Source of the DNA: a virus
Lineage: Duplodnaviria > Caudoviricetes
Reading direction: 5' to 3' (one strand)
Length of the DNA: 64,000 nucleotides
IMG/VR virus record: IMGVR_UViG_3300043432_000237
Span: 32,001 to 96,000 of that record
This document shows positions 57,559 through 59,870 of this stretch, one piece after another; position 1 is the stretch's first letter, and every line of letters begins with the position of its first letter. The notes under the pieces are model-generated. The model did no database searches. It worked only from the letters and a program-made list of their open reading frames with translations, and was not told the origin of the DNA. A program made the translations under genes and the position numbers.

Positions 57559-57858
57559 TCAAGTCGTCTCTTGTCGAATGGCGTTCCTCCGATAGCCGCC
57601 GGGCAGTGGCCAGTAGCCGAAGCTCGTAGGGTCCCCGGGGCGTGGCCCGAAAAAGGTACCGGCGGGCGCGTAGTCGTTCAGGGCAGCAGAGAGCCCCAGG
57701 AAGGCCACCATGGCGGTCTCCGTCGACCCCAGGCTGCGCTCGGCCACCACCAGCATCCGCTCGGCGTCGGCGTCCTCCGGGTGAGCAATGCTCGCCAGCT
57801 CCTCGGCGAAGCGCGTCACCGCCTCGGGCACGTAGTCGGTACGGATCAGCTCAGTCAT
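57559..57858 (-). CDS. Hypothetical phage protein
   Basis: ALNDYAPAGTFFGPRPGDPTSFGYW. Confidence 0.6.
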   Translation of the reverse strand: MTELIRTDYVPEAVTRFAEELASIAHPEDADAERMLVVAERSLGSTETAMVAFLGLSAALNDYAPAGTFFGPRPGDPTSFGYWPLPGGYRRNAIRQETT

Positions 57859-59870
57859 GACCGCTTGATCTTGGTGTCGACGTGATCGAACTCGCCCTCC
57901 TGTGCTGCACGCAGGAAGTGATCAGCCAGCGCCTTCGCCACCAGCTCGCGCGTCGGCTTGTTGAACATCTCGTGCCACTTCATCGAGCACCCGTTCTCCT
58001 TGCAGTACGCCTGGGCCGCGGCCTCGACGACGTAGCCCCAGAGCTTGGGCGCCAAGGCGTGATCGTAGTTGCCCTTGCGGAACTTGCGCAGTTGGTTCAC
58101 GAGCGCCGAGTTGCCGTGTCCGTGGGAGCTGTGCATCGAGAAGCGCGCGTCGTTCTCCAGGTACAGCTCCAGCTCGTCCGCCGCGTGCTGGTCAGCCGTT
58201 CCGCCGCGTGCGTTGCTCTCCATCTCGTCGTCGCCAGCAGCCGCGTAGGCGGCGTTCATGAGTGCGGCGTCCAGGATACCGCTGCCCTCGTTCACGAATT
58301 GCTTCAGCTTGCGCTTCAGGAAGTCGTTCACGGCTCCACCGCGCCTCAGCTGGGCGTGGTCATAGAAGTCTTCCCAGCGGCCGTCCCAGATACCGACGCC
58401 TTCTCCGCGCAGCGTCATGAGCACCAGGTAGGGGCCCATGTTATCCCAGAGATCGTCGGCCGTGGTTCCGCCCTTCGGTGGATGGGTGCGCACCAGCTCG
58501 TCCAGCGCGCTGGCGAGGGCGGCGTCGTACTCCTTGGCGACCCGCAGCACCTCTTCGGTCACCTCGACGTCTTCCGTGCCCAGGTCGCCGCTCTCTGCTT
58601 CCATCTCGATCAGCTGATGAAGCAGCTCGACGTCTTCGGCGAGACCGCCACGGAGCGAGTGATGGTGGTTCGGGCGCAAGCGTGAGCCACCGCGCGCGGT
58701 CGGTTCCGTCCCGGCTCCCTTGCACATGGGGCACGCGGCGCGTTCTCCAAACACCACGCCCTCGCCCTCGCAGTGCCCGCAATCCTTCCTTGGCACCTGC
58801 ACGCTCACCACCTTCTTCCCCGTGCCACCCGGACTCCGCACGACCACCTGGTAGGCGCCTTGCCCCGCCGGGATGACCCACTCGGTCTCCACGGGCTCGT
58901 AGCCCTGGCGGCGCGCTTCCGCCCACACGCGCTCGTGCAGCTCGCGGTACTTCTCTGGCGGCGCACCGTTGGGCTCCAAGTCAGTAGGGTCAGGGTGCAC
59001 CTGATGACTGCGTGTCGCGTGACCCAGTTGTCGGAACTGTCCATCGGCGCCGACTCCGAAGATGACGCCCGCGCGAATGCCTCGACGTTGCGCCTCGTAG
59101 CGCGCGGCGTCCATCGCCTCGGGCACCGAATCGTACCCGCGCGTTGGGCCGATGGTCAGGTGGGTGCCACCTCGCTGCACGAGATCCACGACGTACCTCC
59201 CGCGGTGATCGGCATGGATCACGAAGTCGTCTTGGCTTGCTCCGGTTTCTTGGTAGATGCCTCGGGCGTTCGGGGAATACGGGGACTTCACTCGCGGAAC
59301 ACGTTGGGCCGGGATGCCCTGCGCTCGCAACTTCACGAACGCAGCGTCGCAAGCCTGGGCCGTGGGGTAGGACTTGAACGTCGTGTCCGACACTTTCAGG
59401 ACGCGGCCTTCCTCGACCGCGCGCGCCCAGTCCGTGCGCTGCTGCCGAGATTCCCTCTTCGAGATGTTCGCCTCGTACTTCGAGCCGTGCGCGTAGTCCT
59501 CGAAATAATCGTCCGCTCGGTCCTCGTCTTCGTGCGGGGACTGCTCGAAAACGGACTGCCAGGAGCGCTCCAGGTCGTGCTCGGTGTCGTACAGGTTGAC
59601 GTCCACGAACCCCTGGCTGTCCGTGAACACGATGACGCCCGCCGCGCTGGTGATCTCGTTTCGGTCCACCGAGTTGAGCCTCGCCACTTCCTCGGGCCAG
59701 CTCTCGGCGAACTTGTCCAGGTCGAACGGACCCCGGAAGAGGTCTGCTCCCGAGCCGTCCTCCCCGAACGAGATCTGACCGTCCGAGAAACCCTCCAACA
59801 TGATCGCGTGGAACAGCTCACCGGACGCTCCACTTCTCTCGAACTTCCCCGGACGCTTCTGATAGCTCAT
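57855..59870 (-). CDS. Multidomain polyprotein-like protein
   Basis: About six small domains separated by YEAN, YSPN, LEPN, LRPN, MESN. Confidence 0.75.
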   Translation of the reverse strand: MSYQKRPGKFERSGASGELFHAIMLEGFSDGQISFGEDGSGADLFRGPFDLDKFAESWPEEVARLNSVDRNEITSAAGVIVFTDSQGFVDVNLYDTEHDLERSWQSVFEQSPHEDEDRADDYFEDYAHGSKYEANISKRESRQQRTDWARAVEEGRVLKVSDTTFKSYPTAQACDAAFVKLRAQGIPAQRVPRVKSPYSPNARGIYQETGASQDDFVIHADHRGRYVVDLVQRGGTHLTIGPTRGYDSVPEAMDAARYEAQRRGIRAGVIFGVGADGQFRQLGHATRSHQVHPDPTDLEPNGAPPEKYRELHERVWAEARRQGYEPVETEWVIPAGQGAYQVVVRSPGGTGKKVVSVQVPRKDCGHCEGEGVVFGERAACPMCKGAGTEPTARGGSRLRPNHHHSLRGGLAEDVELLHQLIEMEAESGDLGTEDVEVTEEVLRVAKEYDAALASALDELVRTHPPKGGTTADDLWDNMGPYLVLMTLRGEGVGIWDGRWEDFYDHAQLRRGGAVNDFLKRKLKQFVNEGSGILDAALMNAAYAAAGDDEMESNARGGTADQHAADELELYLENDARFSMHSSHGHGNSALVNQLRKFRKGNYDHALAPKLWGYVVEAAAQAYCKENGCSMKWHEMFNKPTRELVAKALADHFLRAAQEGEFDHVDTKIKRS

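Follow-up and report, generated by a model that had tools for sequence, protein, structure and literature searches.

A portable asparagine motif at the module seams of a polyvalent-type protein from an uncultured soil phage

A chain of swappable modules

The DNA analysed here (the window, 64,000 nucleotides) comprises bases 32001-96000 of the 125,036-bp IMG/VR virus record IMGVR_UViG_3300043432_000237, which derives from an uncultured soil phage, carries direct terminal repeats and has an estimated completeness of 80% (CheckV) and a G+C content (GC) of ~66%. Our subject is P0001, a 671-codon open reading frame (ORF) on the minus strand, whose product is divided into segments at short, asparagine-ended tetrapeptides. 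P0001 is a real gene, with an ATG start, a GGAG sequence 9 nt upstream and a GC content at third codon positions (GC3) of 0.83, and it occupies the middle of a minus-strand unit of three genes, between a gene of 183 amino acids (aa) and a downstream gene of 99 aa (Table 1).

Searching P0001 with phmmer against 1.84 billion representatives returned 1,712 matches at E <= 0.001, nearly all of them partial, and six segments of the protein, named modules A, B, C, D, F and G, were mapped onto the best 160 of these 1,712 relatives. Module A was found in 13 relatives, N-terminal every time and in some of them with the leader M-x-M-R-x-N↓PGKF (the arrow marks the position after the motif throughout), and module B is nearly unique, being common only to P0003 by BLASTP. 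Module C recurred in 38 relatives, some of them standalone genes (101 and 111 aa), and most of these relatives either have [M/F/Y]-x-x-N before the module or start at M+ARGIY. Module D is rare; YEGN↓ or MQSN↓ stands before it in P0012, P0013 and P0003. Module F occurred in 76 relatives (standalone genes of 140-183 aa) and module G in 100 (standalone genes of 103-132 aa). The relatives carry P0001 modules in other orders, duplicated, or joined to other unknown segments, so that, on the question raised by the initial annotation of whether homologues of the segments are standalone genes or reshuffled, they proved to be both.

An AlphaFold2 model of P0001 (40-row alignment, mean predicted local distance difference test score (pLDDT) 76.9) showed confident domains at residues ~10-109, 205-290, 302-360, 414-547 and 556-660, and segments with pLDDT <50 at 110-136, 157-172, 188-194, 331-338, 384-402 and 548-555. 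None of the modules matched a family of known function in Pfam (E up to 1), PHROG or NCBIfam beyond the zinc knuckle of module D, whose weak Pfam matches to DnaJ_CXXCXGXG and Anti-TRAP lie below cut-off. Foldseek comparison of the whole model with the PDB gave nothing at E <= 0.001, the best VIA-align score against 48,161 chains (Z 6.1) was background for helical domains, and BFVD and the ESM Atlas gave matches solely to unnamed viral proteins; module G, for instance, resembles ESM Atlas clusters of ~120-aa viral hypothetical proteins (template modelling score 0.77). P0001 is apparent from these data as a chain of small, independent, evolutionarily swappable modules.

Such an architecture recalls the polyvalent proteins of phages and conjugative elements, which carry two to fifteen domains per polypeptide and for some of which processing has been proposed (Iyer et al. 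2017, PMC5512222). Like them, P0001 is phage-encoded, contains several unrelated small domains and is mosaic and reshuffled among relatives, and its six segments, four of which were modelled confidently as separate domains, agree with the polyvalent domain count. However, the MPTase, ArdC-N, methylase-helicase dyad and LPD domains of that survey were not detected in P0001 (Pfam, E up to 1). The survey describes no common seam motif, and the word 'linker' is absent from its text, whereas the seams of P0001 carry a single Asn tag.

The asparagine motif and its possible readings

The five tetrapeptides picked out by the initial annotation, YEAN (132-135), YSPN (198-201), LEPN (298-301), LRPN (398-401) and MESN (550-553), were all confirmed in the translation, with their Asn codons at 59466-8 (N135), 59268-70 (N201), 58968-70 (N301), 58668-70 (N401) and 58212-4 (N553). 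Their proposed position at domain boundaries was borne out by both homology and structure. In BLASTP against the first 17 relatives, homology breaks at ~198-202, 295-301, 400-410 and 550-560, corresponding to four of the five motifs. In the AlphaFold2 model, low-confidence parts lie at or beside all five Asn: N135, N401 and N553 form the C-terminal edge of a segment with pLDDT <50, and N201 and N301 lie in 10-residue blocks of mean pLDDT 56-76, dips between well-folded domains. Judged by pLDDT, no motif falls inside a folded domain. Furthermore, a position-specific scoring matrix (PSSM) built from relatives without P0001 selected exactly the five reported Asn among 18, with scores of 9.2-18.0 (15.8 for the seam that ends module B). 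The weakest seam is YEAN-135: it coincides with no homology break in the relatives, it scores just 9.2, and the model is poor for module B, which comes next. The spacing of exactly 100 residues between Asn 201, 301 and 401 is probably a coincidence, because the relatives of modules C and D vary in length.

The Asn motif was present at module boundaries in the relatives too. [MYFLHWIV]-x-x-N occurred within a 20-residue window at 99 of 149 internal module starts, compared with 22% of random windows. Numbering the residues as for a protease site, with the seam Asn as P1, a logo of 118 seams gave M (30), L (20), H (20), Y (14) and F (11) at P4, R/E/T at P3, P/R/K/A at P2, A (49), G (27) and P (13) at P1', R (54) at P2', and G (34) and R (32) at P3'; P1 was Asn at all scored seams. 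The pattern first written for the linkers, [MLY]-x-[APS]-N, was correct in its Asn-ended tetrapeptide and too narrow in limiting the preceding position to A/P/S, and we refine the portable seam to [M/L/H/Y/F]-x-x-N then [A/G/P]-[R/K/S]-[G/R]. Examples before internal copies of modules C, D, F and G are MRKN↓GRGIY, METN↓GRGIY, HTPN↓ARG, LEPN↓ARA, LQPN↓HHHT and YEGN↓GAPP. When a matrix from 50 seams of half the relatives was applied to 80 unseen proteins, it found 93 sites against 7.3 +/- 2.3 in shuffles, and all 93 lay outside the recognised module cores, even though these account for 34% of the residues. Modularity, reshuffling, a conserved motif and its exclusion from folded cores are all directly observed.

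The tag stands before unrelated modules (ARGIY..., GAPPE..., HHHSL..., ARGG...) and after unrelated ones, and it is therefore not the property of any one fold. At the beginning of an ORF, a module either starts M↓ARGIY, where removal of Met would expose the same Ala as after a seam, or carries a minimal leader (MHKN↓, MQKN↓, MIDN↓, MKHTRN↓ or MTMRQN↓) that amounts to a complete site; such leaders occur in 17 of 161 proteins, with Met1 or a hydrophobic residue at P4. These ORF-opening modules argue that the tag acts as a signal rather than as a mere spacer, since a pure spacer would have no reason to exist with nothing upstream of it. Single linkers can also hold two or three copies of the tag 8-15 residues apart (HTPN↓ARQQSLTPN↓ARV, HTPN↓ARKPLPRGAVKHIPN↓AVA, YESN↓KKLPLRRN↓A).

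Endopeptidase sites are typically built in this way, with one invariant residue at P1, a hydrophobic one at P4 and a small one at P1'. We propose that the tag is the site of a trans-acting endopeptidase that cuts the polyvalent protein into small proteins, a reading that we hold to be about evenly poised between right and wrong. Alternatively, the tag could be a short linear motif that is never cut. A scaffold, a packaging adaptor or a chaperone, for example, might use it for docking or sorting, or it might be a conserved hinge, and P0001 would then work as one multi-domain polypeptide. A portable motif in disordered linkers fits binding as well as cleavage, and many polyvalent proteins, such as N4 vRNAP, ArdC and TraC1, are delivered uncut (PMC5512222). 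However, a hydrophobic P4, fixed P1, small P1' and basic P2' are typical of sequences read by endopeptidases, ORF-initial modules have exactly the P1' residue next to their Met, the tandem copies within one linker are redundant, and the dense sites in an Arg-rich repeat protein (described below) are hard to explain as docking. We consider an uncut motif a real possibility, but an unlikely one.

The P4 position also bears on whether the seams are fusion scars, that is, M-x-x-N-A-R-G gene starts left in frame, from which the modules would still be made by internal ATG or TTG initiation. Met is indeed the commonest P4 residue (30/118), standalone relatives start MHKN↓ or MQKN↓, and the P4 codons of three P0001 seams are TTG, TTG and ATG, with TTG accounting for 14% of Leu codons. 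Nevertheless, His, Tyr or Phe, which cannot start translation, occupies P4 in 45 of the 118 seams (38%), and the P4 codons of this genome include TAC, TAT, CAC, CAT and TTC. No Shine-Dalgarno-like sequence precedes the internal TTG or ATG codons, save a weak GGTGG before codon 398. A scar would conserve neither the Asn nor the residues that follow it, nor would it occur in the Arg-rich protein. A history of fusion can account for the origin of the Met, yet it leaves the persistence of the motif unexplained, which makes a scar a decidedly improbable account of the seams. At the level of DNA, a seam acting as a recombination site was rejected as the main cause: CCG AAC GCC/GCG are preferred codons at 66% GC, and P4 and P2 vary by residue class, not by nucleotide.

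The invariable Asn at P1, followed by Ala, Gly or Pro as at known lyase sites, would also suit self-cleavage by the seam Asn without any protease. Asparagine peptide lyases of this kind include the nodavirus coat protein (Asn-Ala), reovirus mu1 and YscU/FlhB (Asn-Pro), and inteins. These proteins, however, need a specific, conserved fold around the scissile Asn, whereas the P0001 seams are low-confidence linkers between unrelated modules, and seams occur even 4-15 residues from N-termini. Free Asn-Ala and Asn-Gly mostly deamidate rather than cleave, and the preferences at P4 and P2' point to an external reader. Self-cleavage is thus the explanation in which we place hardly any trust.

Other carriers of the motif and the genomic setting

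The motif type had also been said to recur in a core protein 45 kb away, and the statistics agree. In this Arg-rich protein, M/Y/F/L/H stands at position -3 of 11 of the 17 Asn (binomial p=2e-6), and the orthologues in four related IMG/VR phages gave 11/20, 16/22, 13/23 and 14/25 (p 3e-5 to 2e-9). Sites in these orthologues include LSPN↓ARL, MQTN↓ARR, YDDN↓ARR and MSSN↓RRR, and in the Arg-rich repeat protein the sites are dense, coming every 10-90 residues. The hydrophobic-x-x-Asn bias was absent from long opposite-strand control ORFs. The tag is present in a second protein class, across six genomes.

Across the whole genome, the matrix matched 28 sites, compared with 6.3 in shuffles, with concentrations in P0001 (five), the Arg-rich protein (six) and a second polyprotein (four). 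The 99-aa gene downstream of P0001 has YRRN↓AIR seven residues from its end (PSSM score 13.0). Among the best-scoring tag sites of the genome is that of an 864-aa SNF2 helicase with an N-terminal DUF6011 (L005:956-3550 (-), outside the window), in which EDYQRN↓GRG, with a score of 17.6, lies 15 residues before the C-terminus. The genes of 605 and 882 aa in Table 1 are adjacent (L007:9689-14151 (-)) and lie three genes downstream of a phrog_1645 'virion structural protein', a protein with relatives in cyanomyoviruses and Puniceispirillum phage HMO-2011.

Table 1. Features discussed in the text; positions refer to the window unless a genome position is given, and AF2 denotes the AlphaFold2 model
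Feature	Position	Strand	Basis and remarks
P0001, 671-aa modular (polyvalent-type) protein	57855..59870	-	ORF, translation; 1,712 partial homologues
Module A, aa 1-135	59466..59870	-	alpha/beta domain 10-109 and disordered tail ending YEAN-135 (59466-59477) (AF2)
Module B, aa 136-201	59268..59465	-	helical, pLDDT 34-68 (AF2); ends YSPN-201 (59268-59279)
Module C, aa 202-301	58968..59267	-	starts ARGIY; beta-alpha-beta, pLDDT >90; ends LEPN-301 (58968-58979)
Module D, aa 302-401	58668..58967	-	alpha+beta domain and CxxCxGxG zinc knuckle 361-387; ends LRPN-401 (58668-58679)
Module F, aa 402-553	58212..58667	-	starts HHHSL; all-alpha, pLDDT >90; ends MESN-553 (58212-58223)
Module G, aa 554-671	57858..58211	-	starts ARGG; all-alpha, pLDDT >95
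99-aa downstream gene	57559..57858	-	ATG overlaps P0001 stop (ATGA); ORF list
Arg-rich 596-aa 'core' protein, hydrophobic C-terminal half	12497..14287	+	second carrier of the hydrophobic-x-x-Asn tag
177-aa transglutaminase-like Cys-His-Asp enzyme, putative; candidate processing protease	2754..3287	+	Pfam Transglut_core
483-aa ORF in the block of the Arg-rich protein	5486..6937	+	tag-like MKAN↓AMR and MNRN↓SRH, PSSM 11.2 and 9.2; no family match
DUF2201_N putative metallopeptidase with VWA-like domain	38798..40042	-	Pfam 2e-24
605-aa tag carrier with DUF5661 HExxH module	genome 105689-107506 (outside window)	-	
882-aa tag carrier with GHKL ATPase and HECTH motif	genome 107503-110151 (outside window)	-	

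The three-gene unit that contains P0001 converges on a tyrosine integrase gene (56224-57513) and adjoins an M15 endolysin-like gene (60650-61327). The M15 neighbour is kept in related phages, but the small genes flanking P0001 are not. A search of 30 further ORFs gave no PHROG or Pfam match to a capsid, portal, terminase or tail protein, and the ~20 kb of plus-strand genes surrounding the Arg-rich protein (2754-22194) were likewise without one. Neither at the DNA nor at the protein level did any of 50,697 deposited phage genomes match, and the phage therefore has no cultured relative in that set. Among species-representative bacterial and archaeal genomes, a first scan with a single protein gave no confirmed match, and a second scan gave one distant locus, in a GN15 metagenome-assembled genome.

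Elsewhere in the window, ARAGORN called a transfer-messenger RNA (tmRNA) at 53315-53667 (-) with the atypical tag peptide APSRSRLRPDGCRRVRSP; because this peptide is without the usual ...ALAA end, the call may be false or the RNA unusual. Genes for tRNA-Gln(ttg), tRNA-Ile(aat) and tRNA-Arg(acg) lie beside it (52505-53127). The phage also carries an unusually heavy load of sugar-modifying genes, comprising at least three glycosyltransferases and a nucleotide-sugar epimerase in the window (23389-26149, 50887-52068 and 63090-63986) and, outside it, a GNAT-methyltransferase-GT2 fusion and a second epimerase.

A candidate enzyme and the case for cleavage

One gene in the block of the Arg-rich protein encodes a 177-aa protein that matches Transglut_core with 34.3 bits against a cut-off of 23 (E 3e-8). 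Its triad, C104 (GDCDD), H137 (SHVF) and D154 (DPVAG), is invariant in five phages at 54-64% identity. Its model (pLDDT 81, predicted template modelling score 0.80) was matched by Foldseek, with a probability of 1.0 in every case, to the putative cysteine proteases 3isr and 3kd4 (1e-5 each), LapG (4fgq/4fgo, 3e-4), PeiP (9e-4) and PNGase (1e-3); further fold neighbours are TglA and PeiW. The gene was found in all five close relatives (54-63% identity), where it is the sole conserved protease-fold gene found, and in every one of them a distance of ~9-11 kb separates it from the Arg-rich gene, which has the same orientation. Supposing that cutting occurs at all, we tentatively name this protein as the reader of the tag, with a confidence well short of even.

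LapG is a site-specific endopeptidase that recognises one short motif in a disordered substrate stretch, and proteins of its type, the bacterial transglutaminase-like cysteine proteinases (BTLCP), have the fold and the Cys-His-Asp triad in common with the 177-aa protein. LapG differs in its di-alanine site, its periplasmic location and its calcium dependence, and the 177-aa protein, whose activity is predicted, is 15-16% identical over the aligned fold. Legumain and the other asparaginyl endopeptidases (MEROPS C13) have a strict Asn at P1, but the likeness is in specificity alone, and no C13 or C14 gene was detected in the record: PF01650 (C13) and PF00656 (C14) gave nothing at E up to 1 in these 125 kb (estimated 80% complete), although the controls rang, C13 in Caulobacter. 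PF04586 (S78) and PF00574 (ClpP) were likewise without a match in this genome and in seven related genomes, where positive controls rang and divergent enzymes could escape, and PF03420 (S77) gave no match, but its controls gave none either.

Other peptidase genes were rejected as general readers. In three relatives (L002:5226-6422, L003:8038-9243 and L027 (G002:7953-8573)), a subtilisin-like S8 gene of ~400 aa is found one or two genes away from the polyprotein, but it was not found in this genome nor in four relatives (G003, G005, G006 and G011). A CHAP-domain gene is also nearby in L002 and L003. Ten further phage records, of which six belong to close relatives, were searched for the DUF2201_N/VWA gene and did not contain it, and neither this gene nor the DUF5661 HExxH module was found in any relative.

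It is conceivable that a host protease reads the tag and that the transglutaminase-like protein does wall cutting or cross-linking instead; the staphylococcal phage 80-alpha, for example, borrows the host Prp protease. The seven related genomes yielded no classical prohead protease, the wall isopeptidases PeiP and PeiW are among the fold neighbours of the 177-aa protein, and the presence of the S8 gene near the polyprotein in three relatives, against its absence in four and in this genome, indicates that accessory proteases vary. On the other hand, the tag seems to be confined to one phage clade and the modules to be wider spread, which a phage-encoded reader fits slightly better. In other phage families, including four genomes that are 95-100% complete, module F or G occurs internally without the tag and without a transglutaminase-like gene, a pattern that accords with the 177-aa protein as the reader but amounts to little beyond a single clade. 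We judge a host reader improbable.

Cutting, the enzyme, packaging and the functions of the modules we infer along the following lines. In the proposed trans-cleavage, the site would have Asn at P1 and either His or a large hydrophobic side chain at P4. P3 and P2 would be free, with a frequent choice of E/R/T and P/R/K/A, respectively, and the Asn would be followed by Ala/Gly/Pro at P1', a small or basic residue at P2' and Gly/Arg at P3'. A clade-specific phage endopeptidase would cut after the seam Asn and release the P0001 modules as separate 7-17 kDa proteins with Ala or Gly as new N-termini. Standalone relatives would lose their short M-x-x-N leaders to this enzyme, which would also break up the Arg-rich protein into short basic peptides. 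Among the recognisable genes, the most plausible enzyme would be the 177-aa transglutaminase-like protein, which shares the gene block of the Arg-rich protein. If that block encodes virion parts, as we assume, processing would be a step in the maturation of the particle, and the modules could enter the host as cargo alongside the DNA.

Several facts weigh against this proposal. About one-third of the internal module starts in relatives have no tag, and many module G relatives have basic leaders without Asn. The 177-aa protein could, judging from its modelled fold, be a cell-wall isopeptidase like PeiP and PeiW, and the link between tag and enzyme is equally explained by shared ancestry, because both come from essentially one clade. 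PHROG and Pfam are silent on the block of the Arg-rich protein, whose structural nature is assumed. P0001 itself lies beside the integrase and endolysin-like genes, outside the recognisable structural block, a setting that cytoplasmic expression and processing would suit equally. The phage and all its relatives are known from metagenomic sequence alone. A literature search found nothing relevant on an Asn-specific phage protease or a phage anti-defence polyprotein, and to our knowledge no described phage protease cuts after Asn.

Viral maturation provides the closest precedents for such processing. In phage T4, the internal proteins and Alt have a capsid-targeting sequence, and the gp21 protease cuts at L/I-x-E↓. 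Head and ejection proteins are cut at a one-motif site ending in Glu by gp175 in phiKZ and by gp245 in SPN3US (PMC10052503). Like the T4 and phiKZ substrates, unrelated proteins of the present phage carry a short motif with a fixed P1, at leaders and several times per protein. In those systems a single phage protease reads the motif and releases small proteins or peptides, which remain with the DNA; here, a single reader and such products are predicted. In contrast to them, P1 is Asn and not Glu, the substrate is a chain of folded modules and not a propeptide with one mature domain, the P0001 gene lies outside the recognisable structural block, and no S77/S78-type protease was found (the S77 search being one without a positive control). 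Packaging of the P0001 products is suggested by analogy with T4 internal proteins, phiKZ and SPN3US ejection proteins and polyvalent proteins.

Adenain, a papain-like Cys protease, processes adenovirus pVII and pre-mu at (M/I/L)-x-G-x↓G sites. It offers a second parallel, as a Cys protease with a hydrophobic P4 rule that cuts Arg-rich DNA-condensing precursors and other virion proteins. Adenain differs in belonging to clan CE, compared with a transglutaminase-like CA fold, in its P1 and in its eukaryotic host, and the parallel is closer for the Arg-rich protein than for P0001. Taking these parallels as far as they may go, a transglutaminase-like protease with Asn at P1 would replace the serine prohead protease in a clade of 95-140 kb uncultured soil phages and would process both a protamine-like, DNA-associated Arg-rich protein and freely reshuffled cargo polyproteins, the tag being the plug-in address through which any small gene could join a packaged effector cassette by fusion and its product later be set free. 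This full scheme we regard as doubtful.

Modular phage cargo and polyvalent proteins are already known; what is new here is one protease-like Asn code at the seams. The observation is real and statistically solid, and its initial interpretation is partly supported, plausible and now sharpened, though unproven. Should the seams prove to be uncut, the tag would keep its standing as a clearly defined linear motif that is portable between proteins. Cleavage at the seams, in turn, would reveal the first code for phage maturation or processing that has Asn at P1, and the enzyme might be the first transglutaminase-fold protease in that role. The rule for the mature products would be to split at hydrophobic-x-x-N↓A/G, by which ~1,700 metagenomic ORFs, opaque at present, would resolve into defined sets of proteins (60-150 residues each) for expression and screening. 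Such a code would also show by what means phages build, swap and deliver cassettes of very small proteins; most known anti-defence proteins fall into this size class.

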